From a bacterium (lineage in GTDB: Bacteria > Bacteroidota > Ignavibacteria > SZUA-365), in assembly GCA_020444325.1 (NCBI GenBank), contig JAHLLD010000001.1, forward strand, positions 580,964 through 644,963: DNA of 64,000 nucleotides. Reading direction: 5' to 3'. The position numbers and the translations under genes were made by a program. A model generated the notes under the pieces. That model was not told where the DNA came from. It did not search any database and saw only the letters and a list, made by a program, of their open reading frames with translations. Below, one piece after another: positions 4,453-58,801 of the stretch. Positions within the stretch are counted from its first letter, which is position 1; every line of letters starts with the position of its first letter.

Positions 4453-4476
4453 TTGTAACACCCCATCCGGTAATGC

Positions 4477-12030: not shown

Positions 12031-14127
12031 ATGAGACAGTTCATACATATCCTGTTCGTTTCCTTATTCACGACAGCAATCGTATCAGCCCAGTCCGTCA
12101 GCTGGCAGAATGTCGGTCCCTTCGGCGGCGAAGTGAATGACATCATTACACTTGAGAGCGGGGTGATGTATGCCGGTACGACGTATGGAGGGATATACAG
12201 GTCCACCGATGGAGGAATGCACTGGGAACTCGCGACAGCTGGACTCAGTCATGCGTTTCAGTACAACTACTGTTACAGTCTGGAAACCGATGCTGATGGC
12301 GTGCTGTATGCCGGGACGCATTACGGGCTGTACCGCACGACGGATGATGGCGCGACATGGACGCAGCACACCGAGGGATTGGACAACTGGACGCGTATCC
12401 AGGTGCTGCTCAACGATGGAAACGGAACGCTGTTTGGGGGAGTGTACAACAGCGGGGTGTACCGGTCCACCGACAGGGGGGAAACATGGAGCGAATCGAA
12501 TGAGGGACTGAGTAATACCTCGGTCAACGATCTGGCCGTGGATTCCGAGGGACGGCTGTATGCTGCGACGGAGAACGGATTGTTTCGTTCCATCGACAAT
12601 GGCGACAGCTGGACGGAGATGAGCGAGGGACTCGAATACTCCTGGGTGAATTCACTTTTCATCACTCCAGGCGATACAATAATTGCAGGAGGCAGAGGCT
12701 CTTCGAGTATCAGCGTGGACCATGGAGCGACCTGGACCCCGGGGCTCTCCTTCGGCTGGCACTGGACAGTGTACGCGGATGCGGATGGCAGCTTCTATGC
12801 AGGTGGAAATACAGGTATTGTGTTCAAATCCACCGACAGGGGAAGCAGCTACGAGACAGTTACCAAGGTGCCTGATGCGACCTTCCACAGAATGCAGCCG
12901 TCGGCACGCGGTGGCATTATTGCAGCAACGGAGAACCACGGTGTCATCGAATCCATGGACGGTGGTCTCACATGGGAAAGCAGAAACAGCGGACTTGCAG
13001 CCACCGATGTCATCGAGCTCGTCCACGGAGACGCCGGCCTGTTCGCGGGTACCTACGAAGGCGTGTATCACAGCACGGATGACGGTGCCACATGGATGCA
13101 TCGCGTGACGGAGGAAAGCGGTGTGAATTTCCGCGCATTGGGTATCAGCAGCAGCGGCCGTCTCTTCGGTAGTGCCTCCGGTGTCATATCCATCAGTGAT
13201 GACAACGGTGTCACCTGGCGGTATGGTGACAGTACACTCACTGAAACGTGGGCCGACTGTTTCGGCTTCGGTCCGAACAACACGGTCTACGCCTGCTACT
13301 GGGATGGCATTTTCCGTTCCACCAACGGAGGGGACAGCTGGTCTGAGATCAGTAAAATCGAGGGTGTCGCGAAACAGGTGTGCTATGTCACGCCGGCGGG
13401 AAGCATCATCATCGGGACCAGGAAAGACGGTCTGTTTCGTTCGACCGATGGCGGGTTAACATTTACTCAGGTGCCGAGCGCGGGATGGGACAATGACGAC
13501 CACACCGCCATCATTGAAGCGGCAAACGGCGATCTCCTGCTTACGAATTTCAATGGCGTGTTCCGTTCCTCTGATGACGGCGTGAGCTGGACCATGCTCG
13601 GGCAGGTACCGACGTATGGCGTGAAAGACATCGCGGAGGATTCAAAGGGAAACCTGTTCATCGCCTCGCGCGGAGGCGGGGTTGCCGTATCCACCGATGG
13701 CGGTGCGACGTGGACTGAGGTCAACGACGAACTCGGTCATCTCGTTGCGTATGCATTGTACATCGACGATCAGGACAATATTTACGTCGGAACCCGGGGC
13801 GGCGGCGTATTCAAAGGACGATTCAGCCTCACCGCCGTCGAGCAGACGCCGGTTCTTCGTCCCTCGACTGTCACACTGCACGCGAATTACCCCAACCCCT
13901 TCAATCCCGGTACCACCATTCCCTTCACTCTCAGCACGGCTGCGGAGATTTCGCTCATCGTATATGATGCGCTCGGTCGCAAGGTTGCGACCATCGCCGC
14001 GGGACACTATGGCGCAGGAACGCATCGCGTATACTTTGACGCAAAGGATCTCCCGGGCGGCGTCTATTCGGCGCGGCTTTCCGCAGGCGCTTCGATGCAG
14101 CACATTCGCATGTTGCTGCTGAAATAA
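12031..14127 (+). CDS. Secreted BNR/Asp-box (sialidase/Ycf48-like) beta-propeller repeat protein with a T9SS C-terminal sorting domain
   Basis: Signal MRQFIHILFVSLFTTAIVSAQS. Many repeats of the S-x-D-x-G-x-T-W type (STDGGMHW, TTDDGATW, STDRGETW, SIDNGDSW, ...). The last roughly 80 aa, VTLHANYPNPFNPGTTIPFTL...GGVYSARL..., is a type-A T9SS C-terminal domain. Confidence 0.7.
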   Translation: MRQFIHILFVSLFTTAIVSAQSVSWQNVGPFGGEVNDIITLESGVMYAGTTYGGIYRSTDGGMHWELATAGLSHAFQYNYCYSLETDADGVLYAGTHYGLYRTTDDGATWTQHTEGLDNWTRIQVLLNDGNGTLFGGVYNSGVYRSTDRGETWSESNEGLSNTSVNDLAVDSEGRLYAATENGLFRSIDNGDSWTEMSEGLEYSWVNSLFITPGDTIIAGGRGSSSISVDHGATWTPGLSFGWHWTVYADADGSFYAGGNTGIVFKSTDRGSSYETVTKVPDATFHRMQPSARGGIIAATENHGVIESMDGGLTWESRNSGLAATDVIELVHGDAGLFAGTYEGVYHSTDDGATWMHRVTEESGVNFRALGISSSGRLFGSASGVISISDDNGVTWRYGDSTLTETWADCFGFGPNNTVYACYWDGIFRSTNGGDSWSEISKIEGVAKQVCYVTPAGSIIIGTRKDGLFRSTDGGLTFTQVPSAGWDNDDHTAIIEAANGDLLLTNFNGVFRSSDDGVSWTMLGQVPTYGVKDIAEDSKGNLFIASRGGGVAVSTDGGATWTEVNDELGHLVAYALYIDDQDNIYVGTRGGGVFKGRFSLTAVEQTPVLRPSTVTLHANYPNPFNPGTTIPFTLSTAAEISLIVYDALGRKVATIAAGHYGAGTHRVYFDAKDLPGGVYSARLSAGASMQHIRMLLLK

Positions 14128-14165: not shown

Positions 14166-14198
14166 GCGCCCTCGAAATATTCTCGAGGGCGCCTTTTT
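14166..14198. terminator. Bidirectional rho-independent terminator between convergent genes
   Basis: gcgccctcga(aatattc)tcgagggcgc is a perfect 10-bp stem followed by ttttt. It lies between the stop of the 12031..14127 gene and the stop of the OmpA gene at 14198. Confidence 0.6.
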
Positions 14199-16153
14199 CA
14201 TATCGGCGTCTTGACTTCAACCGCGACGGTGCGGCAATAAAATCTCCCCTCTGGTAAATCGTTGTCGTAGAGTTCCGGCGCCTCGCCGATGCCGCGGGCG
14301 GAGAGTTTCCTGTAGGACGGCTTTTCTTCAAGCAACAGCGCTTTGACGTTTTCCGCGCGGGCAGTAGAGAGCTGCTGGTTGTGATCCGCCTCCCCCAGCC
14401 TGTCAGTGGAACCGGTAATCTCGACCGAGGATGTCGACTTGATGGCCTCCCCGACGAAACGCCGGATCATGCGGCGGTTGTGCGGAAGAATATCGGAGCG
14501 GTCGAAATCAAAAACGATCAGCGACAGCCTCCCGATTTCAAACGAATTCTGTTTTTTGTGCACGGGAATCACCATCGACGATGCCGCTGTCAGTCCCCGC
14601 GTATCCTTCACCTTCAGTTCTGCCGTGAGCGCGTCTTCTCCACGCACGCGCGCTGCAAGCAAATCGTCGAGCTGCCAGCGCAGTTTCGCGGGGGGAGCGC
14701 CTTTTCCCTCAAAGGATGCCACCGCTTCCTCGCCGTGCAGCACCGTCATCGACCAGCGCTCCATCGCCGCTGTGCCTTCTGCACCGAGCAGCAATTCCAT
14801 TTCCGGGGGGGTGATGTCGTATTCACTCAGGTGTTCATGCACGACGGGACGGAACACTTCATCGTATTCCGACATGATTTCCACGCGGCGGTTTTCCTCA
14901 TCGCCTTCCGCATAGGCCTGGCTCGATGGCATCTGCGGCAGCTTCTGCGTACTCAGCGCAATACGGCTGCTGTCAATTCCCCATACATCGATGAAATATC
15001 TGCGCACCGTGTTTGCGCGGCTGTAGGCAAGATCCGTATTCCCGCGTTCCTCGCCCTTGTCGTCCGTCGATCCGACGAGGGTGATGCGAATTTCAGGATT
15101 CAGACGCAGCCGGCGTCCGACGATATCCAGCAGATGATAGTATATCGCCATGGTTTTTCTGGGCAGTCCACTTTCAGTAAAGGCCGCGGTATTGCGCGCG
15201 TCCATGATGCGATACTTGTCCGGAAGCCGGGCGGAGTTTTTCTCAAAGAACACATACGGAAGCAGTGGAAAGGTTTCCGTGACGAAGGTTTCGACAATAT
15301 CGATTTCCGCATCCGTGCTGCTTCCGATGGATGCCACCGGCGGCTTCGGCGCCGGGGGTGGCGGTGGCGGTGGAGCGGGTGCGGCGGGAGGCGGTTCCTC
15401 CACGCCGGGCTCAATGCGCCAGGTCAGCGATGCCCCTGCCGAGAGCGCGGAGATGTTCCAGTCATATCCTGTCGTGGCGTCAGAGATTGGCCAGGAGTAA
15501 AGCAGCTCCGGTGAGAATTCCATCCCGCCGCTGAGCTTCAGCGTATACCCTATTCCACCGACAAGAGCACTGCGCAGCTGCGCATCATCGAACTCCCCAC
15601 TGCCGTTCGAGCGTGTGCGTGTGAAACCGGGATACAATGCCCCCTGGGGCGAAACGATGCGCTCTTCCTGTGCCCATGATGCGGCGACAACGGGGAGTCC
15701 CACCCTGAACGCCCCGGAAACAAAGAGGGGAAATGACAGCGGCGCTATTTTCCCGCCGAGTTCAAACGTCAGATAATCGAGTTCGACGTCTTTCGTGTAC
15801 TCGCGGACCAGCGGAGCAAAGGTGTTGTCCTCTCCTGTGGGTACGATGATACCGTTATCACAATACGTGCTGAGGCGTCCCCCGCGCGGAGCGTATCCGA
15901 GTCGCACGCTTCCGCGCAGCCATTCGAGAAGTTCGACTTCGCCGACCAGCGCGACGGAAATTCCTTCGCCTCTGCCCGACGTGAACGCGCCACATTCTCC
16001 TTCCGAAGCGCGCACATCCTGCCAGGTGTCATGCCAGACGCGATCATAGCCCGCGCGCAACCCGAGGTGCCAGATGGACTGGGACTTCGCGGCTGGCGTC
16101 GCGATGATGAAAAAAATGGAAAGGATGGAAAGATGAAATAATCTCCTTCTCAT
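14198..16153 (-). CDS. OmpA-family outer-membrane protein: N-terminal beta-barrel, Pro-rich linker and two OmpA-like peptidoglycan-binding domains
   Basis: Likely start at MRRRLFHLSILSIFFIIATPAAKSQ (ATG at 16153); the listed ORF extends 31 codons further upstream. Linker PPPAAPAPPPPPPPAPKPP. C-terminus ...TGSTDRLGEADHNQQLSTARAENVKALL... is the OmpA_C signature, and an internal copy reads VGSTDDKGEERGNTDLAYSRANTVRRYF. Confidence 0.8.
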   Translation of the reverse strand: MRRRLFHLSILSIFFIIATPAAKSQSIWHLGLRAGYDRVWHDTWQDVRASEGECGAFTSGRGEGISVALVGEVELLEWLRGSVRLGYAPRGGRLSTYCDNGIIVPTGEDNTFAPLVREYTKDVELDYLTFELGGKIAPLSFPLFVSGAFRVGLPVVAASWAQEERIVSPQGALYPGFTRTRSNGSGEFDDAQLRSALVGGIGYTLKLSGGMEFSPELLYSWPISDATTGYDWNISALSAGASLTWRIEPGVEEPPPAAPAPPPPPPPAPKPPVASIGSSTDAEIDIVETFVTETFPLLPYVFFEKNSARLPDKYRIMDARNTAAFTESGLPRKTMAIYYHLLDIVGRRLRLNPEIRITLVGSTDDKGEERGNTDLAYSRANTVRRYFIDVWGIDSSRIALSTQKLPQMPSSQAYAEGDEENRRVEIMSEYDEVFRPVVHEHLSEYDITPPEMELLLGAEGTAAMERWSMTVLHGEEAVASFEGKGAPPAKLRWQLDDLLAARVRGEDALTAELKVKDTRGLTAASSMVIPVHKKQNSFEIGRLSLIVFDFDRSDILPHNRRMIRRFVGEAIKSTSSVEITGSTDRLGEADHNQQLSTARAENVKALLLEEKPSYRKLSARGIGEAPELYDNDLPEGRFYCRTVAVEVKTPI

Positions 16154-16157
16154 GCTG

Positions 16158-19100
16158 CTACTCCACCACAACCATGACGCGCGTTTGCCGGTAGGTGCGC
16201 GTGCGCATTTCGTAACTGTAGATACCGCTGGAAAGTCCACTGACATCGTACGTCAGTTGATAGCGTCCGTGCGTATACCAGGTGTCGGTGAGTATGGCGA
16301 CCTCGCGTCCGCGAGCATCCCGCAGTGCGATGCGCACCGGCGTATCCTCCACCGTCTCGAACTCGATGGTGGTCAGGGCGGAAGCAGGATTCGGGTAGTT
16401 CTGCTCGAGCGCGTCGCGGTTTTCACTGATGGAGATGCTGTCGATGCCGCAGCGGGGATTGATGGTGATGGGCGTCATGCACCCGTCACCGAACAGTGCG
16501 ATGAAGAGGGTGGAATCGGATGCAAAAGTGATACTGTCGGTGCGCATGACGAACTGCATGCGGTCGGATGCCGCCACACGGAAGGAAATCCAGCCGACGG
16601 GACCCGAGGTCACCTGCTGATTGTCGCGCAGGGCGATTCGTACACCGTCAGGACGCAGGGTATCGCGCACGGGCCGGGCGGTAAACACCGGCTCGAAGCC
16701 GAGATACTCGAGCGCGCGACGGTGAAAGAGTATGGAGAAATCCAGGTCGAGCGGGTTCTGTGGAATATCGCGATTGAGAAAGACCGGGAGCCTCAGTACT
16801 TCCCCGATGTCCGCAGTGATGGTCGTGTCCATGCAAAGCGTGATCAGCCACGGCGGTGTGTACCCGCTGCCGGTGATGGAGAGTGTGGTATCGACTTCCT
16901 CGCAGCTGACGCGCGTAACGAGACGGATGCGGGCATCGTAGGCAACTGCGGCGCGGGGTCTGAAGAGAAAATCCAGGCTGCGCGATGCCCTCGGCGGAAC
17001 GCTCAGCGGAAGCGCTCCTGCGTAGGCGAACACGCCCTGGTCGGGCACAAAGCTCACGTTATCGATGATGAGAGCATCGAGATAACTCGGATTTTGAAAA
17101 GTGACACTGACCGGCATGGCTGCCGTCAGCACCGGTGTCGCCGGAAATACCACCGATGCGATGCTCGGGATGTACTGCAGCACGCGGGACCCGACGAGAT
17201 TGATGCTGTATACCTGCTGTCCCAGCCGCGTGGTTGCGGCAACGTGCAGCTGCGCAACGGATTGTACGCTGGCCACGCGCGCGGGGAAAAACCTGATGTC
17301 TATGCTGTCGGCGAAATGTGGCGGCGTGTCCCGTGGCGGCAATCCGCTGAAGGTGCGTCCCTTCCAGCTGAAGGCCGCAGCGTCCGTTCCCGTAATCCAG
17401 ATCGAGTCGATGGTGATGGGCACGCTGCCGTCGTTCACCAGTCCGATCACGCGCAGCACACTATCGCAACGTGTGGCTTCGGTGAAGACGATGGTGGACC
17501 ATGGGACGAAAAGCGGGATGATGATGCCGCGTCCCTGCAGCTGTCCGTTCGCTTCCACCGTGCACGGATTGCCCGACTGCACGGCGATGCCGCCTCCATA
17601 TGTCGTGTTGTTCGACGGCGCGAATTCCACCGTTACCAGCATGGTGTCGCGATACTGCAGGGTGCTTCCTATGGGCGGCACGGCACTGAGTACGGTAAAG
17701 CCGGCGGGCAGCGGGGGAATGGCGTCGACGACGACGGGAGTGGGACTCGGGTTGGTAATCCGCAGCACACGGGTCAGCGTGGTACCGACCTCCACATCCC
17801 CAAAATTCGTCATGGCGTCGATGGTGAGCTTCGGTTCGATATTCGTCCCTGTCAGCAACATGCGCAGCTCGCCTTCCGGTCCGTCGGTATCGAATACGAG
17901 ATCGGCGGTTTCCGTCACAAAATCCGGTGCGCCTGCGGGACAGTATTGAATGATATACTGCCGCTGTCCCCCCACGGGAAGAATTTCATTCGTCGCGGGA
18001 AGCGGCGGGAGGAAAGTGAATTTCACCGACCCGGTGATGCTGACGCTGCGCAGCGTCAGTGCGGCGCCGGTATTGTTGGTCACTGTCACCGTATCCTGCC
18101 TGCACTGGCAGTTGATCACATTTCCCGCCTGCAGATAACCGGGATCGAACACCAACGAGCCGAACACCCCGTTCCCTTCCAGAATTACGCGTTTGATGAT
18201 CTGGCAGCCGACGTCCTGAAAATTCAGTGTGTCGCGGTAGAATACCGGGTTGAGCGGACGAAAGTTCACGTTCACCGTTGCAGCGCTGCCAGGTGCGATG
18301 TTGACCCGGTTCCCGCCCATGATCGAAAACACGCGGCCTGAACTGAGGTACATGAATACGTCTCTCGTATCGATACCGTTGTTGTCGATCGTCACCGGCA
18401 GGGTTGCCGACTGTCCGACGATCACATTTCCGAACTGTACGAGCGAGTCGCGGGCGGACAGCTGCACATCAACAATGCGTCCATCGAGCGGGATGTCCCT
18501 GTACACAATACAGCCGCGGAAATTCATGCGTATGCGCGCCGTGTCGGTGTAGTATCCCTCGACCGACGACTGGAAACGAATGTACATGCGATGTGATCGT
18601 CCCACCCGCGCGGTGAACGGCAGAGTGGTGGGGGTGGAAAACACCGGGTTGCTGAATTCGATAGCCTCGACCACGAAGGGCTCGTTCGTGCGGTTCGTCA
18701 GGTAAAACTGTTCCGCCAGGTTGAGGGACCGACGACAGGGCTGATTCGGGCGGTCGAAGCTGATCGAAGAAAGCGTGAGGCGAGCAATGTCAACATTCCT
18801 CCCGAATAATGGCACACGTCCACTGCCGGGACAGACGTCATCCGACGCAATCAGCAGCGTATCGACGAAACTGCCGGTATCCGCCGGAGCGAAACTGAGA
18901 AGCACATCGCGGCAGTCACCCGGCTGCAGCGTGACAGGCAGCGTCCAGCCTCCACCCGGTACCGCGGTAAACGCCGGTGAAGAAGTCAGCAGCGACGTCA
19001 CGGTAATGGGTCCTCCGCTGGTATTGCAGATCTGCAGCGTGGTATCGCTTGTGCTCTGATTCACGCAGCCGAACAGCGTATCGAACACCACGCGTCCGGG

Positions 19101-20237
19101 CGTCGGTGTCAGCTGCGTTCGACGTTGAATATCGATGGGAATAACCGATGCGGGATTGCAACTGTTCAGCGGAGTGACATTCAGTGTCGCACGTATGTTT
19201 CCGGTCACACGCAGCTGCGTCTGCAACTGCACCGTTGACGGCTGATTCTGCGACAGCGTCAGGAAGTTGCTGCCCAGGATAAACTGTCCCGCGTCGGGCC
19301 CGCTGAGCGAGAGTGCGACCTGTTGCGCACAGGACGAAGTATCGGTAACCGTGACGGTGAGAGTCGTGTCGGCGGTGCAGCCGAGTGGAAGGGAAAAGGC
19401 GGCGGGGGTGATAAAGACGGACTGTGGGACAATACGCGTCGATGGAACAAATCGAAGCGTTCCGCGCCGGTTGCCGCGTCCATTGAAATCCGAGGCGTCG
19501 CAGAGCACGTCTCCTCCCGCTTCGTTGCAGCGGAAATACAGGATCAGTCCCGCCTCATCGCCCTGCAGCGAAGCATAGCGCAGGCAACGCAGCTCGGCCT
19601 CACCGAGCGTGCGATTCCACATGCGTATTTCGTCAAGTTCACCGGTGAGGGGTCGCTGCAGCGACGGATCGTTTGTCTGTCCGTTGAAACTTCCCCACTG
19701 CAGGTAGCTCATCGTCGCGCGCATTGCCGTGAGCGGAGTATCCGCATTGCGTCCCTGTGCCTGCAGTGTACCATCGATAAACAGCCGCGCCTGCTGCGTA
19801 CCTCCATCCCACATGGCGGCGACATGCATCCATACGTCATAGCGCATGGCGGTTTTGATCGTGGTGTTGTCGAAGTCTCCGAATCGCGATACGTCCGGAC
19901 TGAGTGTGAACACCAGTGAGTCGCTTTCGTCAATGAAGAGCAGCCAGCGATCGTCGGTATCGGTGCGCGGACCCCATTCGCCCCCGATATACTGGCGCAC
20001 GCCGGACTGCCGGCTTACGCGCATCCACAGCTCCACGGTCATCGCCCGGGTTGAATCCACCGAGCGTAGTGCGGGTGTGGTGAAGACGTCCACGTAGTCG
20101 AGATTTCCCCCGGAAAAACGCAGTGCATTGCCGAGACAGCGCGTATCGCTGTCGCAGGTCGACTGCGCCGTGAGCAATTGCGGCAGCGCGAGAAGCAGGA
20201 GTAGAGGGGCGACGAAATGTCTGCGTGTCAACAGCAT
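16158..20237 (-). CDS. Giant secreted T9SS cargo protein: LamG/concanavalin-like lectin domain plus multiple choice-of-anchor-D/Ig-like domains plus T9SS C-terminal domain
   Basis: Signal MLLTRRHFVAPLLLLLALPQLLTAQS. N-terminal LamG-like region (LRFSGGNLDYVDV...ELWMRV...LFIDGTL...DEIRMWNRTL). Repeated FGNVIVGQSATLPVTIDNNG-type beta-sandwich modules follow. C-terminus LEQNYPNPASALTTIEF...SSGIYSYEM... is a T9SS C-terminal domain. Stop TAG at 16158-16160, 4 nt before the OmpA start. Confidence 0.75.
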   Translation of the reverse strand: MLLTRRHFVAPLLLLLALPQLLTAQSTCDSDTRCLGNALRFSGGNLDYVDVFTTPALRSVDSTRAMTVELWMRVSRQSGVRQYIGGEWGPRTDTDDRWLLFIDESDSLVFTLSPDVSRFGDFDNTTIKTAMRYDVWMHVAAMWDGGTQQARLFIDGTLQAQGRNADTPLTAMRATMSYLQWGSFNGQTNDPSLQRPLTGELDEIRMWNRTLGEAELRCLRYASLQGDEAGLILYFRCNEAGGDVLCDASDFNGRGNRRGTLRFVPSTRIVPQSVFITPAAFSLPLGCTADTTLTVTVTDTSSCAQQVALSLSGPDAGQFILGSNFLTLSQNQPSTVQLQTQLRVTGNIRATLNVTPLNSCNPASVIPIDIQRRTQLTPTPGRVVFDTLFGCVNQSTSDTTLQICNTSGGPITVTSLLTSSPAFTAVPGGGWTLPVTLQPGDCRDVLLSFAPADTGSFVDTLLIASDDVCPGSGRVPLFGRNVDIARLTLSSISFDRPNQPCRRSLNLAEQFYLTNRTNEPFVVEAIEFSNPVFSTPTTLPFTARVGRSHRMYIRFQSSVEGYYTDTARIRMNFRGCIVYRDIPLDGRIVDVQLSARDSLVQFGNVIVGQSATLPVTIDNNGIDTRDVFMYLSSGRVFSIMGGNRVNIAPGSAATVNVNFRPLNPVFYRDTLNFQDVGCQIIKRVILEGNGVFGSLVFDPGYLQAGNVINCQCRQDTVTVTNNTGAALTLRSVSITGSVKFTFLPPLPATNEILPVGGQRQYIIQYCPAGAPDFVTETADLVFDTDGPEGELRMLLTGTNIEPKLTIDAMTNFGDVEVGTTLTRVLRITNPSPTPVVVDAIPPLPAGFTVLSAVPPIGSTLQYRDTMLVTVEFAPSNNTTYGGGIAVQSGNPCTVEANGQLQGRGIIIPLFVPWSTIVFTEATRCDSVLRVIGLVNDGSVPITIDSIWITGTDAAAFSWKGRTFSGLPPRDTPPHFADSIDIRFFPARVASVQSVAQLHVAATTRLGQQVYSINLVGSRVLQYIPSIASVVFPATPVLTAAMPVSVTFQNPSYLDALIIDNVSFVPDQGVFAYAGALPLSVPPRASRSLDFLFRPRAAVAYDARIRLVTRVSCEEVDTTLSITGSGYTPPWLITLCMDTTITADIGEVLRLPVFLNRDIPQNPLDLDFSILFHRRALEYLGFEPVFTARPVRDTLRPDGVRIALRDNQQVTSGPVGWISFRVAASDRMQFVMRTDSITFASDSTLFIALFGDGCMTPITINPRCGIDSISISENRDALEQNYPNPASALTTIEFETVEDTPVRIALRDARGREVAILTDTWYTHGRYQLTYDVSGLSSGIYSYEMRTRTYRQTRVMVVVE

Positions 20238-20241
20238 CCTC

Positions 20242-21780
20242 CTACCGTACCACCAGCTTGCGGCTCACTTTCTGTGTCCCGACCCGCAGCTGATAGTAGT
20301 ACACACCGGCCGGCAATCCCTGCGACTGCAGCACCGCTTCGTGTCGTCCCGCTTCAAAGCTGCCACGCGCGATGGCGGCGATAAGACTGCCGCGTACATC
20401 GTAAAGCAGCAGTTCCACATTTGCGCGACCGGCAAGGGTGAAGGGAATCGTGGTGTGTCCGTTGGCAACGGGATTCGGATAATTCTGCGAGAGCGAAAAA
20501 CCGAGCGGCGCGGCAGCATCATGCTGCGCCGTGGTTGTACGCACGAGTGGCAGCGGGGTAAAGCGTCCCCCGAGCAGCTGCGTCACGTCATCTGCGGGCA
20601 ATTCGAACCAGTGTTCCAGCAGCTCGGAATAGATTTGACGATAATCGAAATCATGCAGAAGATCGCCGCTGTTGTCGGTCACATCGAAATCGGGATCCTG
20701 TCCGAGTACGCCGCTGTTGACCGACTCCCCGAAGAGAAACTGCACGGAAGCCGTCCCATGATCCGTGCCGCTGCTGCCGTTTTCCCGTGTGCGGCGACCG
20801 AATTCCGACATGGTCATGCCGACCACGCGTTTTCCCAGTCCCTGGTTTTTCAGGTCGTCGACGAATTCCTCGGCTGCGGACGAAAGATTCTGCAGCAGGC
20901 GCGCGTGCGCGGACGCCTGATTGCTGTGCGTGTCGAAGCCCCCGAGGTACACCATGTACACTTTCGACTGCAAACCCCCGCTGATCAGGCGCGCCACGAG
21001 GCGCAGCTGCTGCGAGAGTGAGCTGCCCGAGTAATTCCCGACATTCGTGCCACTGGTGAACGCATCGTTGACGCGCTGGGAATACACATCGCTCTGTTCC
21101 TTGATGGCACGCACGAAAAGGTATTCTTCTCCGTATGGCGTTCCGCCTGGCACGGCTTCATCGACCTGGTTGCGGCCCAGACGGAAGAAAGTCTCGGGAT
21201 CCGCGAGCGTGATACCCATGTTTCCTCTGTCCGCCTGCAGCATCAGCGAAAGTGTGCCGCCGATCTGTACCGCGAAGGGATCGGGCGGTAGTTGCAGCGG
21301 GTATGTCGGGTGCGTGATTTCCAGGTATCTCCCCAGCCAGCCCGTGTCCAGAACGCTTCCGGCCCCGGAGCCTGTCAGCCAGATATTTTCGGAGCGGAAA
21401 TGCGAGCGGTTCGCATTCTCATATCCCACCCCCTGTACGGCAACGAGTTTACCTGCGTCGAAGAGATTGCGCATGCCCGTCATGTCGGGGTGGAAGCCCA
21501 TGGTGGGATTCGCGATGCGCAGCACCTCCTGCGGAGAAATGCCGAGGGTGGGACGATTTTGATAATACTGCTGATTGGTATAGGGGACGAAAGTATTGAG
21601 TCCGTCATTCCCCCCGAACAGCTGAATGATGACCAGGACGTTATCGTTTTCCGAAAGCTGTCCCGATCCGATCGCACCGTAGCTGCCGGCATGCACCGGA
21701 ATGCCGCGGAAGAACAGCGGTACGGATGCGACTCCGGCGGAGGCAGCGATAGCGCGGGAAAAAAATTCGCGTCGTTTCAT
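20242..21780 (-). CDS. DUF1501 family protein (sulfatase/alkaline-phosphatase-like) with a twin-arginine (Tat) signal peptide and a T9SS C-terminal sorting domain
   Basis: Start MKRREFFSRAIAASAGVASVPLF is a Tat motif (RRxFF). Hallmark DUF1501 motifs YMVYLGGFDTHSNQ and MSEFGRRTRENGSSGTDHG are present. The last roughly 80 aa, SQNYPNPVANGHTTIPFTL...GVYYYQLRV...VVR, is a T9SS C-terminal domain. The listed ORF starts 33 codons upstream of the Tat signal. Confidence 0.8.
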   Translation of the reverse strand: MKRREFFSRAIAASAGVASVPLFFRGIPVHAGSYGAIGSGQLSENDNVLVIIQLFGGNDGLNTFVPYTNQQYYQNRPTLGISPQEVLRIANPTMGFHPDMTGMRNLFDAGKLVAVQGVGYENANRSHFRSENIWLTGSGAGSVLDTGWLGRYLEITHPTYPLQLPPDPFAVQIGGTLSLMLQADRGNMGITLADPETFFRLGRNQVDEAVPGGTPYGEEYLFVRAIKEQSDVYSQRVNDAFTSGTNVGNYSGSSLSQQLRLVARLISGGLQSKVYMVYLGGFDTHSNQASAHARLLQNLSSAAEEFVDDLKNQGLGKRVVGMTMSEFGRRTRENGSSGTDHGTASVQFLFGESVNSGVLGQDPDFDVTDNSGDLLHDFDYRQIYSELLEHWFELPADDVTQLLGGRFTPLPLVRTTTAQHDAAAPLGFSLSQNYPNPVANGHTTIPFTLAGRANVELLLYDVRGSLIAAIARGSFEAGRHEAVLQSQGLPAGVYYYQLRVGTQKVSRKLVVR

Positions 21781-21791
21781 GCGTCCCCCTC

Positions 21792-23339
21792 TCAGTGCAG
21801 TTGAAAATCTGGAGCCGACGCAATGCGCGTCAGCAGGTTGCGAAGATTCGTGTCGGCGTTCGGCGCATCGATATTCCATTCATACACCGGCGCCCCTCCC
21901 AGCATGGTCTGCAGGTAGCCGTCGCGCCGTGTCTGCGACACTTCGACCGGAAGCAGGAGCAGCAGCATGTCATCGAGCAGCTGGTTGGCATCCGAAACGT
22001 TGTCGAACGTCTTTCCCCAGGCGACAATATCCATAGGCGTCTGCGAAGACCCGCCTGGAAACTGTCCTGTAATGAAGCGCTCGGCGAAGGACTTGCGGTA
22101 GGGATACGTGGTAGTGCTGATCCAGGTCCTGTAGCCATCCCATCCCGCCACCGTGGGCGGATACAGCAGATGTTCCTCGAGCGTTTTCATATCCGCTACC
22201 AGACGGTCGCCTCCGGGATTTGCATTGAGCTGCCGGGCGAGTCCGACCGAAAACACGGCCGGCGATTTGATCATTGCGCCGATATTGACGGTGTCGAAAA
22301 AATGTGCGCTTTTCAGCAGCGTCTGCACGACCGGATAGATATCGTAGCTGTTGTCGCGCAGCAGCTGTGCCATGGCTTCAACCACCTCGCCGTCAACCGC
22401 CTCGGGATTGTCATAGACGAAAAAGGAATACAGCTTGCGGCAGATGAATTTCGCGACGGAGTCATCGTCGAAAATGATATCCACCACTTCGTCTCCCTCA
22501 AAGCGTCCGTCGAGCGACGATCGTCCCACAATCGTGCGTCCCATAAACGTCTTGTTTCCCGCGTCATGCAGCAGGGGACTGAATGAGGCGTCATAGCCCG
22601 TGAACTCATCGAGCTGCCAGCCGGTCAGACAGCGCGCCGCTTCCTTGATATCCTGCTCGGTGTAATTCCCCTCACCCATGGTGTAGAGTTCCATGAGTTC
22701 GCGCGCATAGTTCTCATTGGGATTGCCTGCGATGGAAATGGCGCCGTCGAGATAGCGCAGCATGGCGGGGTCACGGTTCACATCCTTCATCAAATCGCGG
22801 AAATTCCCGAGTGCGTACGAGCGGAACAGTGCGTTCTGCTGATAGAGGAACTGCGGGATTTCCACAACACCCGCTTCCGTGGTGATGTGCCGGTGCCAGA
22901 ACAGCGTCATCTTTTCGGTGATGTTCATGCCGCTGCCCGCCATCCGTTGCGTCCACCACGCACGCAGCGCATTCATCCACGATTTGTTCTGCTGCCGGTA
23001 TGCGTTTTCCTCTTCCGCCGTGGTGGGCTGCGCCTGCAGTTCCCCAACCCACGATCCCGGGGCAGACGGCGCACCGACGGGTTGCAACAGCACATCGACC
23101 AGCTCGCCGGGCTGCATGCTTTCGGCGGACTTGATTTCCGTCCACGTTGGCAGAAAACCCGCACGACGCAGCAAATGCGCTGCACGCCGCCGGTCCCACG
23201 GCTCCTGCGGCGTGGGGATATACGGTTCGAGTCCCGCTGCCGTCCTTCGCTCCACTCCATATAGCATCGGGGGCAGCCTGCGGCGTACCCGTATGCCCCT
23301 TCCCCCATCCGACTGTACAGCAATCTCAGCCATGCGCAA
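21792..23339 (-). CDS. DUF1800 family protein, the usual partner of DUF1501
   Basis: The conserved DUF1800 block ENYARELMELYTMGEGNYTEQDIKEAARCLTGWQ and HLLRRAGF near the N-terminus. Stop 11 bp upstream of the DUF1501 start. Confidence 0.7.
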   Translation of the reverse strand: MRMAEIAVQSDGGRGIRVRRRLPPMLYGVERRTAAGLEPYIPTPQEPWDRRRAAHLLRRAGFLPTWTEIKSAESMQPGELVDVLLQPVGAPSAPGSWVGELQAQPTTAEEENAYRQQNKSWMNALRAWWTQRMAGSGMNITEKMTLFWHRHITTEAGVVEIPQFLYQQNALFRSYALGNFRDLMKDVNRDPAMLRYLDGAISIAGNPNENYARELMELYTMGEGNYTEQDIKEAARCLTGWQLDEFTGYDASFSPLLHDAGNKTFMGRTIVGRSSLDGRFEGDEVVDIIFDDDSVAKFICRKLYSFFVYDNPEAVDGEVVEAMAQLLRDNSYDIYPVVQTLLKSAHFFDTVNIGAMIKSPAVFSVGLARQLNANPGGDRLVADMKTLEEHLLYPPTVAGWDGYRTWISTTTYPYRKSFAERFITGQFPGGSSQTPMDIVAWGKTFDNVSDANQLLDDMLLLLLPVEVSQTRRDGYLQTMLGGAPVYEWNIDAPNADTNLRNLLTRIASAPDFQLH

Positions 23340-23345
23340 TCCTCA

Positions 23346-23362
23346 TATGCAGTTTCTGCATA
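23346..23362. promoter_or_regulatory. Perfect palindrome TATGCAGnnnCTGCATA immediately upstream of the DUF1800 start codon
   Basis: Read directly: tatgcagtttctgcata. On the minus strand it lies 7-23 nt 5' of the ATG at 23339, so it overlaps the expected RBS or operator position. Confidence 0.3.
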
Positions 23363-23505
23363 AAAAATACCTCAGAATATCACCCAAAACCAATCAAGAA
23401 TATCCGTGATACCTGCCTGAATGCGTCGACACAGGGTATTGTCGATTGCAATGGAGGGCTTGGGGAGGTATCAGACTGAGAATAAACACACAGGGATGAG
23501 AATTG

Positions 23506-24072
23506 TTACTTCGGGAATTCGACGCGAACGGAAACACGCACGCGCGGCTGATTCCCTCTGTCCGCTTTGAGATAGCGTTTCACATAGATGCGGCGATAGA
23601 ACGCATCTTCCCTGTCCTTGAAAAACACATGATCGTCGTGCTCGGAGATGTCGATGCCATCACCGGCCAGAAGCGCGGAAAAGCCTTCGAGCAGTGCGTG
23701 ATAGTATGCCAGGCATGCTTCGTCTGAAGAGAACTCCTTTTTCGCCGAAATCAGGTACTCCGGTTCGTCGCCAGAATAGTCTGCCACGCGCGCGCGCTCG
23801 TTCTCGAATTCAGGGATATCGTATTTCTTGCTGAATTCCACCTTCCCGAAAGAAGTCAGATAGCGACCCTTCGCGGCAGCTTTCCAGTCCTCCGCCGTCA
23901 TGATTTCCGAGAATTTCGAAGTGGACTGCTCCCACAGGTACATCCACGCCTTGAATACCTCTTCATCGGGACCGGATCGTGCCGCCATCGCCGATGCATA
24001 CACCTGCGCAGGCACCGCAAACATCACGAGCATGGCGCAGAATATCAGTGTCTTCAATCTATATGAAGTCAT
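23506..24072 (-). CDS. Hypothetical secreted protein
   Basis: Signal peptide MTSYRLKTLIFCAMLVMFAVPAQVYA. No recognisable domain. Confidence 0.5.
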   Translation of the reverse strand: MTSYRLKTLIFCAMLVMFAVPAQVYASAMAARSGPDEEVFKAWMYLWEQSTSKFSEIMTAEDWKAAAKGRYLTSFGKVEFSKKYDIPEFENERARVADYSGDEPEYLISAKKEFSSDEACLAYYHALLEGFSALLAGDGIDISEHDDHVFFKDREDAFYRRIYVKRYLKADRGNQPRVRVSVRVEFPK

Positions 24073-24193
24073 AGCTCCTCCAATTCCAAAATGAGTTGAA
24101 TTGTACAATACGGAATCAGAGCAGTGCTGTCAAGAAACATCTGTCTGCAGGGCTGGACTGCAGACCGGATTTGTAAGCTGCGTCGTTGTGTTA

Positions 24194-25846: not shown

Positions 25847-26051
25847 GCACAGGATACAGCCTACTCCTTCCACCGCCTTGGATCATCCGGATTCAGGAAA
25901 CGCCTGCCCTTTCTTACGTTGCCTCTCACCGATGCGTGGCGTATTTTCCCGCAGACGCTAATCCGCAACATGATTTTTTTACTCGCGCACATCGCCTGTG
26001 CAGCGGGAAGGAGTATTGTAATGCACCATGCATCCGAAAGTGGAGGGCGGT

Positions 26052-27170
26052 ATGTCTGTTGACAGTTCCTCCTCTCCACGCAGACTTATCATCTGCTGCG
26101 ATGGAACCTGGAATTCTCCGGGGAAAGGTGTGCAGCGGCTCGGAGAACGCGAGCAATGCACAAATGTCGTGAAAACCGTACGATCGATCGCGCCGTTGGA
26201 CGAACACGGCCAGGATCAGATCGTGTACTATGACAGTGGTGTCGGAACGGCGGGACTGTTCGACAAGTACGTCGGGGGATTTACCGGCCACGGAATCCGT
26301 GAGAACATCGAGCAGGCTTACCGCTTTCTTGCAAACAATTACAGGGACGGCGACGAAATATGGTGCTTCGGCTTCAGCCGGGGCGCGTATACCGTGCGCT
26401 CTCTCGGGGGATTGATCAATACCGTCGGACTCCTCCCAAAAGGATCCCTGAAGTTCTTTCCTCTTTTTTACAACTACTATCGCACCGCGAAATCCCGGCG
26501 CAAGGATCTGCCGGAATACGATGAGATCACCTCCATCATCGGCACGAACCGCAAACCCCCAATCACCTTCATGGGCGTGTGGGATACGGTGGGGGCTCTC
26601 GGAGCGCCGACGCCGCTGCTGGGACGCATTACGCGTTCATGGGTCGGCTTCCACGACACACGTGCAGGGAATATTCAGTACGCTTACCACGCGCTCGCGG
26701 TGGATGAGCTGCGCAAACCCTTCGCACCAAGTGTGTGGACCGAGAAGGACGATGTCTGCAAGGTCATGAAGCAGGTCTGGTTCGCCGGTGCGCACTCGAA
26801 CGTGGGCGGAGGCTATCTCGATTGCGGACTGTCGGATGGCGCCCTGATCTGGATGATGAACAACGCCACCCGGCATGGACTCCGCCTGCTCGATGACTGG
26901 ATGGAGCAGGCCGATCGCATCCAGGCGAATCCCGATGCGGAGATCGTCCATTCCTATAAACTGATGTACAGGATTTTCGGAGCGATTTTCCGCTGGCGCT
27001 ACCCGCGTCCCATCGGCGGCAAACACCGGGATGTGAACGGGACGCGGGTAAGCGGCTGCGAGGAATTCGTGCATGACAGTCTCCACTGGCGCGCGCGAAA
27101 GAACAAGCACACCGTCAATCCCCGGAACCTGGCCTACGGGATTGAACACCTCCCGGTGGACAAGCCCTGA
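26052..27170 (+). CDS. DUF2235 alpha/beta-hydrolase (Tle1-like phospholipase family)
   Basis: RRLIICCDGTWNSPG is the DUF2235 N-terminal signature. GFSRGA is a nucleophile-elbow GxSxG. Length is about 370 aa. An alternative start lies at 26028. Confidence 0.75.
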   Translation: MSVDSSSSPRRLIICCDGTWNSPGKGVQRLGEREQCTNVVKTVRSIAPLDEHGQDQIVYYDSGVGTAGLFDKYVGGFTGHGIRENIEQAYRFLANNYRDGDEIWCFGFSRGAYTVRSLGGLINTVGLLPKGSLKFFPLFYNYYRTAKSRRKDLPEYDEITSIIGTNRKPPITFMGVWDTVGALGAPTPLLGRITRSWVGFHDTRAGNIQYAYHALAVDELRKPFAPSVWTEKDDVCKVMKQVWFAGAHSNVGGGYLDCGLSDGALIWMMNNATRHGLRLLDDWMEQADRIQANPDAEIVHSYKLMYRIFGAIFRWRYPRPIGGKHRDVNGTRVSGCEEFVHDSLHWRARKNKHTVNPRNLAYGIEHLPVDKP

Positions 27171-44859: not shown

Positions 44860-45350
44860 GGTGTTTACTTTCGTCCTTGAAATACTCTCGAATTCTACGC
44901 AGGACAGGGCAAAAAAACAAGTCACAGCCTCGTCCCGCAATCTGATTTCAGGGCCTGAATAACCGTAAAATTTGAACAGAAAAAACTTCAATTTTTTTTT
45001 CCCCCGTAAGTCATTACGGCACCCATACTTTGAAAAAATCAAGTCCTCACAAAGATTTTTTCATATTGAAATTCACTCGCGCGGTCTCTATACTAGTTCA
45101 CATCCACAATGGCTTTTGAGGTGTGGATAAGTTGTGAATAACACCTGTTGAAATCCATACATACGTGTCCCTTCCGTCCGGATCGGGTTTGATTCCCGGA
45201 ACGACACTCTGAGACACCCCTGACGCTCTTTCTCTAAAACACAAAAAACAAAAGATTTAGCGGAATTCCGGTTAAATCTCAGGGGGTGCTGTTGTTTTTT
45301 CTCAGCAGGAACTATTTGAGCGCAATAAAACGGATTTTTGTCTTAATTCT
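44860..45350. promoter_or_regulatory. Candidate oriC half upstream of dnaA: AT-rich tracts that could act as a DNA-unwinding element, plus DnaA boxes
   Basis: A 491-bp gene-free region before dnaA. It has poly-A/T tracts (aaaaaacttcaattttttttt; aaagattttttcatattgaaatt), a perfect DnaA box tgtggataa at 45122-45130 and a 7/9 box acatccaca at 45100-45108. Gene orientation switches here. Confidence 0.5.
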
Positions 45351-58795: not shown

Positions 58796-58801
58796 CGACA
58801 G

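Follow-up and report, generated by a model that had tools for sequence, protein, structure and literature searches.

A DUF1800–DUF1501 gene pair joined to a LamG-bearing T9SS cargo and an OmpA-like protein: a candidate cell-surface module

Four minus-strand genes in the window (the whole stretch of 64,000 nucleotides that was analysed) raise the question of why a DUF1800–DUF1501 pair should directly adjoin the genes of a giant surface protein and an envelope protein. The ORF listing and its translations give a DUF1800 protein, a DUF1501 protein, a 1359-aa LamG/choice-of-anchor-D cargo, and a 651-aa OmpA-like protein (Table 1). The best explanation, which we hold tentatively and rate somewhat below even probability, is that one operon builds a surface assembly of an enzyme, a lectin on a stalk, and a peptidoglycan anchor. 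The observation made in the first-pass annotation is confirmed, and its interpretation is partly supported.

Gene layout and transcription

The first-pass spacings of 11, 4, and 4 bp are borne out by the junction sequences: 11 nt between the DUF1800 and DUF1501 genes (TGA-gagggggacgc-ATG), 4 nt between the DUF1501 and cargo genes (TAG-gagg-ATG), and 4 nt between the cargo and OmpA-like genes (TAG-cagc-ATG). SD-like GAGG motifs are present in spacers of the four-gene unit. The upstream intergenic region separates the DUF1800 start from an unrelated 200-aa ORF (23506-24108), and because the genes upstream differ in every orthologous locus, the operon appears to begin in this gap; a search of its 166 nt for a sigma-70-type consensus site found none. 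NCBI lists DUF1800 as a 513-aa version starting at ATG 23333. At the other end, a hairpin of 10 pairs, 8 of them G-C, was found by a terminator scan 5 nt past the OmpA-like stop codon. It is T-rich on both strands and is therefore likely to be a bidirectional terminator ending the operon. The number of terminator-like sites inside the unit is no higher than expected by chance (11 vs 9.0 ± 3.4). Tight junctions, chance-level internal terminators, and a terminal hairpin together suggest that the four genes form a single transcription unit and are co-transcribed. Tight spacing by itself is ordinary; what exceeds chance is the conservation across other genomes.

Table 1. Features of the four-gene unit and its borders (positions in the window)
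Feature	Position	Strand	Description
Upstream intergenic region, presumed promoter region of operon	23340..23505	-	166 nt; promoter inferred
DUF1800 protein	21792..23339	-	515 aa from TTG start
DUF1501 protein	20242..21780	-	512 aa; Tat-type signal, predicted alkaline-phosphatase-superfamily core, type-A T9SS sorting domain
Tat-type signal peptide of DUF1501	21685..21780	-	residues 1-32, MKRREFFSRAIAASAGVASVPLFFRGIPVHA
Predicted catalytic core of DUF1501	20536..21651	-	residues 44-415; invariant columns of homologue alignment and fold match
Type-A T9SS C-terminal sorting domain of DUF1501	20245..20481	-	residues 434-512
Cargo	16158..20237	-	1359 aa; Sec-type signal, LamG head, Ig-like repeat stalk, C-terminal domain, type-A sorting domain
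LamG/concanavalin-A-like head of cargo	19428..20165	-	residues 25-270; PF13385
Ig-like (ASH/HYDIN-VesB/choice-of-anchor D) repeat region of cargo	16863..19427	-	residues 271-1125; NF012200
Conserved C-terminal domain of cargo	16413..16862	-	residues 1126-1275
Type-A T9SS sorting domain of cargo	16170..16397	-	residues 1281-1356; PF18962, TIGR04183
OmpA-like envelope protein	14198..16153	-	651 aa; signal peptide, beta-rich N-domain, Pro-rich linker, two OmpA-like domains with spacer domain between
N-terminal beta-rich domain of OmpA-like protein, presumed outer-membrane domain	15404..16075	-	residues 27-250
Proline-rich linker of OmpA-like protein	15338..15394	-	residues 254-272, PPPAAPAPPPPPPPAPKPP; read from sequence
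OmpA-like domain 1	14861..15142	-	residues 338-431; NCBIfam Pal, PorE, MotB-type stretches
OmpA-like domain 2	14204..14521	-	residues 545-650; best PF00691 stretch 548-637
GC-rich hairpin	14166..14192	.	GCGCCCTCGA-7 nt-TCGAGGGCGC; between convergent genes; terminator scan

The cluster in related genomes

The identical four-gene order is found in close relatives (L001/L002, L003, L009, L010, and L014; cargo 65–72% identical) and also in L005 and L021 (cargo about 30–33% identical). L017 (cargo 81%) carries the first three genes and L064 the DUF pair and cargo, each followed by the contig end, and L020 holds all four genes in the permuted order OmpA-DUF1800-DUF1501-cargo. The flanking genes differ throughout the loci carrying the four-gene cluster. 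Because all four genes recur between unrelated flanks, with cargos 29–36% identical and once permuted, the arrangement is not a matter of chance, and the recurrence of the order DUF1800-DUF1501-cargo-OmpA with different flanks makes a conserved cell-surface module a fair reading. In an NJ tree, the DUF1501 proteins linked to the cargo group as a single clade, with 83/100 in a UPGMA column bootstrap, both of which are crude distance methods.

The conservation of order has a limit: the DUF pair is absent upstream of the cargo in 4 of the 11 close loci (L004, L012, L013, and L016) within the 8 kb checked (1.1 kb only in L004), where the cargo instead adjoins unrelated genes encoded on the other strand. 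In each of the 11 informative close loci, the next gene after the cargo is the OmpA-like one. Among the 80 other DUF1501 loci, whose neighbours are heterogeneous, 79 are without this cargo and all 80 without this OmpA-like protein. Gene order thus shows two separable pairs joined in one cluster, DUF1800+DUF1501 and cargo+OmpA, the latter always adjacent among close orthologues, and the link between DUF pair and cargo is specific to one clade. The proposed co-expressed surface module is retained as a conserved cluster with these two restrictions.

Two independent two-gene modules that are merely neighbours, perhaps co-transcribed for economy and without joint function, would account for the four loci with cargo+OmpA alone, the 79 of 80 metagenome loci with a DUF pair but no cargo, and the cargo homologues standing alone (L006 and L007). 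They would also fit a marine MAG with a split cluster, which keeps all four genes but has the orthologous DUF pair on another contig (L004 and L022), and the gaps of 33–197 nt among the DUF1501, cargo, and OmpA genes in L001 and L003, which leave room for separate promoters. We nevertheless consider mere neighbourhood unlikely, though far from negligible, since the adjacency persists to about 30% cargo and about 44% DUF1501 identity and outlasts both the change of all flanking genes and the permutation in L020. The linked DUF1501 proteins are, moreover, one clade and not a random sample, and LamG_3 occurs beside or within DUF1501 partners in PVC bacteria and in a second FCB clade; in L019, from an unrelated DUF1501 clade, a T9SS protein with two LamG_3 domains adjoins.

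Domains and export signals of the four proteins

Profile searches recovered all the first-pass domain calls, including DUF1800 (PF08811, 373 bits) and DUF1501 (PF07394, 96 bits). The description of DUF1501 as enzyme-like can be sharpened: it models as an alkaline-phosphatase-superfamily fold, nearest to NPP and PafA, with invariant metal-ligand-like motifs. The invariant core motifs are G56-G-N-D59-G-L-N, S126-H-F, D283-T-H285, E326-F-G-R-R, and G338-T-D340-H341-G, in which Ser126 probably acts as the nucleophile and D59, D283/H285, and D340/H341 probably bind metal, as predicted from the model. Near the candidate nucleophile, the model of the loop is poor (pLDDT <50 at residues 127–141), and no sequence-level match of DUF1501 to any solved structure was found. 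The DUF1501 sequence contains no CxPxR formylglycine motif, and identity as a formylglycine sulfatase was rejected on this ground.

Modelled on the superfamily transferases EptA/MCR-1, LtaS, and BcsG, DUF1800/DUF1501 might be a maturation or envelope-modifying system, one that adds a phospho-substituent to, or removes it from, the cargo, the cargo's lipid or glycan anchor, or the envelope polymer bound by the cargo and the OmpA-like protein. We regard this as improbable: the transferases known in the superfamily have N-terminal membrane domains that tether them, whereas DUF1501 is a predicted soluble Tat substrate and carries a T9SS sorting domain itself; near most DUF1501 pairs there is no such cargo, and four loci have cargo+OmpA without a nearby DUF pair.

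The surface assembly that we prefer requires DUF1501 to be exported. Its Tat signal was assigned by motif (MKRREFF, an h-region, and VHA); across 38 aligned homologues R3 and R4 never vary and F6 hardly does, and RR with an h-region is found in all 38 DUF1501 proteins. Over 26 positions, the profile of the family aligns with the Tat signal peptide of E. coli CueO (9e04_H) at E 0.5, and the TIGR01409 profile did not reach its threshold on the window's signal. The C-terminal sorting domain matches PF18962 (31 bits) and TIGR04183 (38.7 bits). The proposed combination of Tat and T9SS signals is accordingly upheld in part, by the sorting domain and the motif but not by TIGR01409. As to its novelty, DUF1501 with a sorting domain is the most frequent architecture in the list of the best 120 homologues, while neither the combination of Tat with T9SS nor the link of DUF1501 to this cargo was found described in the literature searched. 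The 102 experimentally identified T9SS cargos compiled for T9GPred use Sec signals, and this predictor rejects proteins with a Tat signal. The newest point is therefore a conserved Tat-plus-T9SS cargo class, excluded by a current predictor; as read from their sequences, the four genes would imply an export route of Tat followed by type IX secretion.

DUF1800 is all-alpha and has no solved homologue; 17 of 35 members weakly resemble the planctomycete domain PSD2/DUF1585. DUF1800 proteins have been detected in the vesicle/membrane fraction of Entotheonella (PMC12981691). In almost all loci that have upstream sequence, the DUF1800 gene directly precedes that of DUF1501. The first-pass claim that the pair is secreted applies to DUF1501 with its Tat-type signal, but DUF1800 is not evidently secreted alone: it has no signal peptide or other export signal, only the degenerate twin-arginine stretch RRRLPPMLYG. 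An h-region is missing in the window's DUF1800 and all close orthologues (maximum 12-residue hydropathy ≤1.1 vs 1.0–2.1 in DUF1501), and about 18 of the 35 homologues have an M-x-RR-x-[FL]-[FL] start without one. Three or four homologues, including P0193, P0199, and P0229, keep a complete Tat-like signal; the N-terminus of P0193, a marine orthologue with 59% identity, reaches 14.6 bits on TIGR01409 (cut-off 16.7). The Tat-like signal in a few members and the RR starts place the family outside the cytoplasm, and the vestigial motif suggests that DUF1800 is exported by riding on DUF1501. A signal-less DUF1800 could just remain cytoplasmic, but a NarJ/TorD-like assembly or proof-reading factor for DUF1501, with an RR that is a relic as in NarG, is the least probable reading of all: it fits the missing h-region, the all-helical fold, and a gene always adjoining that of a Tat-signal protein, yet the complete signals in P0193, P0199, and P0229 and the Entotheonella fraction argue for work outside the cytoplasm, and about 500 aa is far above the size of the known Tat chaperones.

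In the cargo, Laminin_G_3 (PF13385) scores 67.6 bits over residues 52–216, and the head also gives weak Pentaxin and TafC-type matches, a weak match to the S-layer domain protein 4qvs, and conserved Cys columns (C28, C34, C218, and C246). Choice-of-anchor D (NF012200) scores 125.5 bits in three stretches; ASH/HYDIN-type Ig domains (PF15780, PF22073, and PF22544) match too, as does HYDIN 9ijj over the repeat region. Residues 1126–1275 match nothing in Pfam at E ≤ 0.1 and are kept in all cargo homologues according to a custom HMM (CargoC). The sorting domain scores 34.1 bits on PF18962 and 26.4 bits on TIGR04183 (cut-off 23). The cargo contains 24 Cys, and many of the Cys columns are invariant. 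The orthologues comprise 22 near-full-length proteins (53–81% identity), with a further family of 1650–1700 aa at 29–36%.

For the OmpA-like protein, described at first pass as a barrel with two OmpA domains, the two domains are recovered (PF00691, 77 bits in two stretches, about residues 338–431 and 545–650). The motif TD...N..L..RA..V is kept in both, as GSTD...N..L...RA..V at residue 361 and GSTD...N..LS..RA..V at residue 581. The barrel is putative: residues 27–250 have no Pfam or PDB match and show an excess of amphipathic period-2 pattern (49 positions vs 16.8 ± 7.1 in shuffles). The family of this N-domain comprises 692 cluster representatives, of which 174 reach E ≤ 1e-10; the listed ones are mostly 640–700 aa in length. 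By alignment, the proline-rich linker is found in nearly all orthologues.

The predicted assembly and its closest known systems

In the assembly that we favour, the host, which has a T9SS and belongs to the Bacteroidota/Ignavibacteria/Kapabacteria group, would display the operon's products at its surface. DUF1501, a putative metal-dependent hydrolase most like nucleotide pyrophosphatase/phosphodiesterases and PafA-type phosphatases, would fold in the cytoplasm and cross the inner membrane via Tat. DUF1800, its constant all-helical partner, whose signal has been lost except for a vestigial RR, would therefore leave the cytoplasm bound to DUF1501 ("hitchhiking"). The type-A sorting domain would then hand DUF1501 to the T9SS for surface display or release. 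The cargo would travel by Sec and then the T9SS, exposing a LamG lectin head on a long Ig-repeat stalk, and the OmpA-like protein, gripping peptidoglycan from the outer membrane by its two OmpA-like domains, may dock or anchor that stalk. The head would catch a glycan or other polymer, from which DUF1501 may cleave or remove phosphate-ester or, less likely, sulfate-ester groups. The layout of the genes, their domains, the fold of the model, the invariant motifs, and the recurrence of the cluster are observed; co-transcription, the DUF1800:DUF1501 complex and its hitchhiking, passage of a Tat substrate through the T9SS, docking of the cargo on the OmpA-like protein, and the substrate are inferred.

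Proteobacterial chitin-synthase operons contain a DUF1800-DUF1501 pair (PMC5122149) with the same families, order, tight or overlapping junctions, and twin-arginine motif on DUF1501. Here, DUF1501 additionally ends in a type-A T9SS sorting domain, a LamG/Ig T9SS protein and an OmpA-like protein are linked to the pair, and neither a chitin synthase nor a sugar epimerase takes part. PVC bacteria have DUF1501 modules with PSCyt1/PSCyt2/PSD1 partners, some with Laminin_G_3 (PMC3542564; PMC5615132); both systems combine a Tat-motif DUF1501 with a large partner protein and the carbohydrate-binding LamG_3, and in both the cluster types are numerous, paralogous, and vertically inherited. DUF1800 here takes the place of the cytochrome-motif PSCyt/PSD1 proteins, and LamG is on a separate T9SS cargo, whereas the PVC modules are without T9SS sorting domains or an OmpA-like partner. 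Canonical type-A T9SS cargos (gingipains and mirolase) use Sec according to T9GPred, in contrast to the Tat-type DUF1501.

Compared with ENPP6 (5ege), Xac NPP (7mw8), and PafA/PhoK, DUF1501 shows only 9–14% identity, the active-site mapping is putative, and DUF1501 has a constant DUF1800 partner that is absent from those enzymes. In Tat hitchhiker export, exemplified by the hydrogenase HybOC and DmsAB, and with the vestigial Tat motif of NarG, one partner likewise bears the Tat signal and the other none or a relic RR; here, no redox cofactor is evident, the pair complex is putative, and an added T9SS outer-membrane step is implied. Flavobacterium SprB is a giant repeat-rich T9SS surface protein whose gene adjoins that of a PorP/SprF-like outer-membrane partner needed for or anchoring SprB, and the cargo and OmpA-like genes resemble this layout. 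The domain search found no PorP/SprF match in the OmpA-like protein; the sorting domain of SprB is type B and SprF belongs to the PorP-family barrels, whereas the present cargo carries a type-A domain and its partner two OmpA-like domains.

A predicted four-gene transcription unit and its products

The first-pass annotation had described a tight surface operon at 14198–23339, in which DUF1800 and DUF1501 are joined to a T9SS cargo and an OmpA-family protein. The four minus-strand ORFs were found in the ORF listing and translations, and the spacers of 11, 4, and 4 nt were read at the junctions TGA-gagggggacgc-ATG, TAG-gagg-ATG, and TAG-cagc-ATG, two of which contain a Shine-Dalgarno-like GAGG. 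The NCBI homolog of the window DUF1800 (P0166, 513 aa) is 100% identical across the full query, and thus the NCBI start corresponds to the ATG at 23333. A hairpin (GCGCCCTCGA/TCGAGGGCGC) with T-runs flanking it on both strands lies 5 nt past the stop codon of the OmpA-like gene, between the four-gene unit and a convergent gene; terminator-like sites over the scanned stretch occur at chance level (11 vs 9.0 ± 3.4). The gap upstream of the operon is 166 nt, and a sigma-70 promoter scan of 23340–23505, which is uninformative for this phylum, found no site. With a common strand, short or Shine-Dalgarno-bearing spacers, no internal terminator, and a terminator at the end, the four genes are predicted to form a single transcription unit. 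Long plus-strand ORFs overlapping these genes (e.g., 16152–18341) found no support and were dismissed as the usual shadows in DNA of 58–60% GC.

Coordinates of the four operon genes and of other features in the window
Feature	Position	Strand	Remarks
DUF1800	21792–23339	minus	TTG start
DUF1501	20242–21780	minus	512 aa
Cargo	16158–20237	minus	1359 aa
OmpA-like protein	14198–16153	minus	651 aa
BatA-VWA and HflX-type GTPase genes	2320–5994		about 8 kb from the cluster
BNR/Sortilin-Vps10-type protein	12031–14127	plus	T9SS sorting domain; convergent
Tle1-like phospholipase catalytic domain	26028–27170	plus	T6SS type; PF09994, E 1e-80
dnaA	45351–46802
Candidate replication-origin region	44800–47200
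DnaA-box clusters	45122–45358 and 46760–47152		TTATCCACA, at most 1 mismatch
HYDIN/VesB-type Ig-repeat protein	54927–58616	plus	1229 aa; T9SS sorting domain
tRNA-Leu	58712–58796	plus	anticodon CAA

All domains named in that annotation were recovered by Pfam and NCBIfam. DUF1800 matched PF08811 over the whole model (373.4 bits, cut-off 26.1, positions 1–419 of 419), and DUF1501 matched PF07394 (96.2 bits, cut-off 27, positions 4–379 of 390) and carries a C-terminal sorting domain (TIGR04183/PF18962) exceeding the curated cut-off. The cargo has a predicted lectin-type domain at residues 52–216 (Laminin_G_3, PF13385; 67.6 bits, cut-off 27.6), choice-of-anchor D in three stretches (NF012200; 125.5 bits, cut-off 45), ASH/HYDIN-type Ig domains, and a type-A sorting domain. 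A second large Ig-repeat protein of the HYDIN/VesB type is encoded elsewhere in the window; it lacks a LamG head, and its neighbors include neither DUF nor OmpA genes.

The core of DUF1501 is modeled with the α/β fold common to AP, NPP, and sulfatases. Among 38 DUF1501 sequences, the motifs GGNDGLN, S126-H-F, D283-T-H285, EFGRR, and GTD340H341G are invariant, as are the residues D59, S126, D283, H285, D340, and H341, a pattern expected of metal ligands and a Ser/Thr-type nucleophile. The S126 loop was poorly modeled (pLDDT <50), and the active-site assignment drawn from this pattern is putative. A formylglycine (type I) sulfatase was rejected as the first-choice reading because the C/S-x-P-x-R formylglycine motif is absent from the translation and the invariant columns of the core, where the local sequence is N-R-S126-H-F-R-S. 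Apart from a sorting domain and the signal peptide of CueO, PDB sequence searches with DUF1501, DUF1800, and the N-domain of the OmpA-like protein returned nothing useful.

The OmpA-like protein matched PF00691 in two stretches (77.1 bits), in line with the two OmpA domains claimed, and both contain the peptidoglycan-binding motif TD...N..L..RA..V (residues 361 and 581). The further claim of an outer-membrane β-barrel was less well supported. The N-terminal domain of about 250 aa (253 aa searched) displayed amphipathic β-like periodicity (49 positions vs 16.8 ± 7.1 in shuffles). It matched no family in Pfam at E ≤ 1, and a profile search of the PDB gave no match either. Because the domain shows periodicity only, with no family or structure match, we regard the barrel as a putative assignment. 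The family of the N-domain comprises 692 cluster representatives (174 at E ≤ 1e-10), and it appears to share the overall architecture, since most of its members among the matches listed are 640–700 aa long. PorE and PorP/SprF were rejected as identities: PorE (NF052230) scored 45.2 bits, with a cut-off of 600, and its match was confined to the OmpA-like stretch, and the Pfam scans gave no PorP/SprF family match. Nor did the searches with the 253 aa recover the 8-stranded N-terminal membrane barrel of classical OmpA porins.

The region around dnaA is likely to be the chromosomal replication origin, judging from its composition and motifs. DnaA-box matches number 22 in the window (8.3 ± 2.6 expected), the GC content near dnaA dips to 0.43, and the minimum of the cumulative GC skew lies at about 46.4–47.2 kb. 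The sole Rfam/ARAGORN match in the window is the tRNA-Leu gene.

Conservation of the two gene pairs

The cargo has 22 near-full-length orthologs (53–81% identity) and a longer family of 1650–1700 aa with 29–36% identity to the window cargo; all homologs came from MAGs labeled Bacteroidota, Ignavibacteria, or Kapabacteria. Gene contexts were taken from the encoding contigs and from a scan of a genome collection, and were annotated by phmmer and custom HMMs. The scan used an 11-sequence cargo alignment as the query, a 19-sequence alignment being too divergent. The close set consisted of 12 non-redundant loci, 11 of them informative. The OmpA-like gene lies directly 3′ of the cargo in all 11. The DUF1800-DUF1501 pair lies directly 5′ of the cargo in seven (the window, L001, L003, L009, L010, L014, and L017); in the other four (L004, L012, L013, and L016), the upstream neighbors are unrelated opposite-strand genes (GH3/beta-lactamase, FAD oxidoreductase, and DUF3788). 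The marine MAG that contains L004 encodes orthologs of both proteins on another contig (L022), a DUF1800 59% identical to that of the window and a DUF1501 with a sorting domain. The four-gene cluster is split in this MAG, and every part of it is kept. Among loci with distant cargo homologs, all four genes occur in unchanged order in L005 and L021 and in the order OmpA-DUF1800-DUF1501-cargo in L020; L064 has the DUF pair and the cargo up to the contig end, and the cargo stands alone in L006 and L007.

Several irregularities were noted in these loci. The OmpA-like gene is called as 307 + 338 aa in GCA_027493955 (L002, 14236–16192) and is intact (651 aa) in a near-identical Logan contig (L001, 14236–16191), and in L020 (10577–15441) two separate ORFs, one with LamG (541 aa) and one with the Ig repeats (1070 aa), stand in place of a single cargo gene; both splits are likely to be assembly frameshifts or pseudogenisation. 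The MAGs behind L004/L011, L012, L016, and L022 are labeled Ectothiorhodospiraceae/Chromatiales (Gammaproteobacteria), yet they carry T9SS sorting-domain orthologs of Bacteroidota/Ignavibacteria proteins. Mis-binning or mis-naming has probably led to incorrect labels here. The BatA-VWA and HflX-type GTPase genes of the window recur in L001 (20155–23807), where they lie a few kb from the cluster, which is residual long-range synteny despite the differing immediate flanks. A BNR/Sortilin-Vps10-type protein with a sorting domain is encoded near the cluster in the window, L003 (20664–23129), L005 (22038–23276), and L064 (2866–5229). Its distance and orientation vary among the loci, and since these genomes are rich in cargos of this kind, the proximity may be fortuitous.

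Both DUF families are large, with about 4700 homologs of DUF1800 and more than 8000 of DUF1501 (a lower bound) at E ≤ 1e-10. PF18962 is present on most of the best 120 DUF1501 homologs listed (39–82% identity), and the combination of DUF1501 and a T9SS sorting domain is thus a common architecture. A metagenome scan with DUF1501 collected 80 loci (32–44% identity). Almost all of those with upstream sequence have DUF1800 immediately 5′ of DUF1501, and the two genes usually overlap or lie 0–60 nt apart. The window-type cargo was found in only one of the 80 (L064) and the window-type OmpA-like protein in none, a sample that rules out a general linkage of the DUF pair to this cargo. The neighbors across these loci were heterogeneous and included TonB-dependent receptors, MetRS, a permease, and other T9SS cargos (SprB-repeat, PKD, S15 peptidase, and phytase/PhoX-like), and we found no common theme among them.

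In an NJ tree of DUF1501 catalytic domains, all cargo-linked members fell into one clade, together with the unlinked marine member L022 and the cargo-less L023. A crude UPGMA column bootstrap recovered the clade in 83 of 100 replicates and its close subgroup in 100 of 100. The simplest history is that the DUF pair fused once with the cargo-OmpA pair and that the resulting unit was then inherited vertically, being rearranged or unlinked now and then.

L101 (5298–10425) has apparently three tandem DUF1800 paralogs (at least two ORFs of ~554 aa) ahead of one DUF1501 without a sorting domain, which is followed by a 1328-aa SprB-repeat T9SS protein. Other pairs whose DUF1501 bears a sorting domain adjoin TonB-dependent receptors (L026, 10657–13065; L038, 2118–4394; L077, 6365–9742), and one such pair has a phytase-like/PhoX-like T9SS protein as its neighbor. 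These neighbors hint faintly that the wider DUF1800-DUF1501 family may act in nutrient (phosphate ester) acquisition.

A possible Tat-then-T9SS export route

The N-terminus of DUF1501 reads KRREFF, followed by an h-region and VHA. The twin arginine is invariant in 38 of 38 homologs, F6 is almost invariant, and the h-region is moderately hydrophobic. The family profile aligned to the CueO Tat signal peptide over 26 positions, a weak match (E 0.5), and a TIGR01409 search of short N-termini gave no match for the window DUF1501; the predicted Tat signal rests on the motif. A single DUF1501 chain carries both this predicted Tat-type signal and a T9SS sorting domain. Inspection of the cargo N-terminus showed a Sec signal peptide (MLLTRRHFVAPLLLLLALPQLLTA/QS) and no Tat signal. 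T9GPred draws on a compilation of 102 T9SS cargos identified by experiment; a Sec signal is obligatory in its scheme, and any protein with a Tat signal is explicitly rejected. By this rule the 1359-aa cargo passes, and DUF1501 would fail owing to its predicted Tat-type RR signal. No description of a Tat-dependent T9SS cargo was found in the literature searched. The 64-kb window holds no T9SS core genes; the four sorting-domain proteins in it are an indirect pointer to the machinery. The Tle1-like phospholipase of T6SS type lies in a region otherwise rich in T9SS cargo, and no T6SS genes were seen in the window.

DUF1800 and DUF1501 had both been called secreted, which agrees with the predicted signal and the sorting domain of DUF1501; DUF1800 is not evidently secreted by itself. 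Neither the window DUF1800 nor any close ortholog has a signal peptide or hydrophobic stretch at the N-terminus, whose conserved sequence is RRxLPPMLYG-x-RRT. Roughly half of the DUF1800 proteins sampled (alignment A3) open with the textbook Tat motif M-x-RR-x-[FL]-[FL] without an h-region. Three or four have a complete Tat-like signal, among them the marine ortholog P0193, which scored 14.6 bits on TIGR01409, below the cut-off of 16.7. The pattern resembles a Tat signal that has become vestigial across the family. We read it as a decaying signal in a protein that would be exported bound to the signal-bearing DUF1501, as in known hitchhiker pairs. Alternatively, the signal-less DUF1800 may be a cytoplasmic assembly factor instead of an exported partner, a reading to be weighed against the few complete signals in the family.

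Taking the hitchhiking reading further, we tentatively suggest, while considering it on balance rather unlikely, that DUF1501 proteins with a sorting domain form a class of T9SS cargo that is widespread among Bacteroidota, Ignavibacteria, and Kapabacteria and is brought to the periplasm by Tat in a folded and metal-loaded state with DUF1800 as a passenger, and that the clade of the window places this enzyme complex beside a dedicated lectin stalk and peptidoglycan anchor. If this is true, the T9SS takes Tat substrates, possibly even a pre-assembled hetero-oligomer, and the cargo rule of a Sec signal and no Tat signal overlooks the whole DUF1501 class.

The proposed surface module and known systems

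The proposed surface module was partly supported: the domains and the recurring order agree with it, but the arrangement is a clade-specific fusion of two separable pairs. The description that fits the locus best is of two conserved pairs fused into a single surface module, the first being a putative AP-superfamily enzyme with a helical partner and the second a LamG-headed Ig-repeat stalk with a predicted peptidoglycan-binding envelope protein. Both the enzyme and the stalk carry T9SS sorting domains. A conserved Tat-then-T9SS route, possibly with a passenger subunit, would be the most interesting testable consequence. The locus puts two very large families into a concrete context that can be tested: it predicts for DUF1501 a phosphodiesterase/phosphatase-like fold with a defined candidate nucleophile, points to a possible DUF1800:DUF1501 heterodimer exported by hitchhiking, and, through its conserved neighbors, the lectin stalk and the peptidoglycan anchor, suggests action at the cell surface. 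Should the two pairs instead be independent, what remains is an ordinary operon that encodes uncharacterised envelope proteins in an uncultured lineage.

DUF1800-DUF1501 is a recognized operon pair of unassigned function, found, for example, beside bacterial chitin synthases (PMC5122149), and the literature searched contained no functional study of either protein. In PVC bacteria, DUF1501 is paired with PSCyt/PSD1 proteins, some of which contain Laminin_G_3 (PMC3542564; PMC5615132). HMM matches of DUF1800 to the PVC partner domain PSD2 were weak. In L019, a locus from a different DUF1501 clade, a T9SS protein with two LamG_3 domains and a P-domain adjoins the DUF pair. Given this neighbor and the LamG_3 of the PVC partners, a lectin-type module beside DUF1501 is a recurring theme. 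That it occurs in FCB as well as PVC bacteria suggests a common logic in which a binding module is combined with an esterase. SprB/SprF is a known case of a T9SS cargo with a dedicated outer-membrane neighbor. The cargo and its OmpA-like neighbor recall that pair, but the type of sorting domain and the partner family are different.
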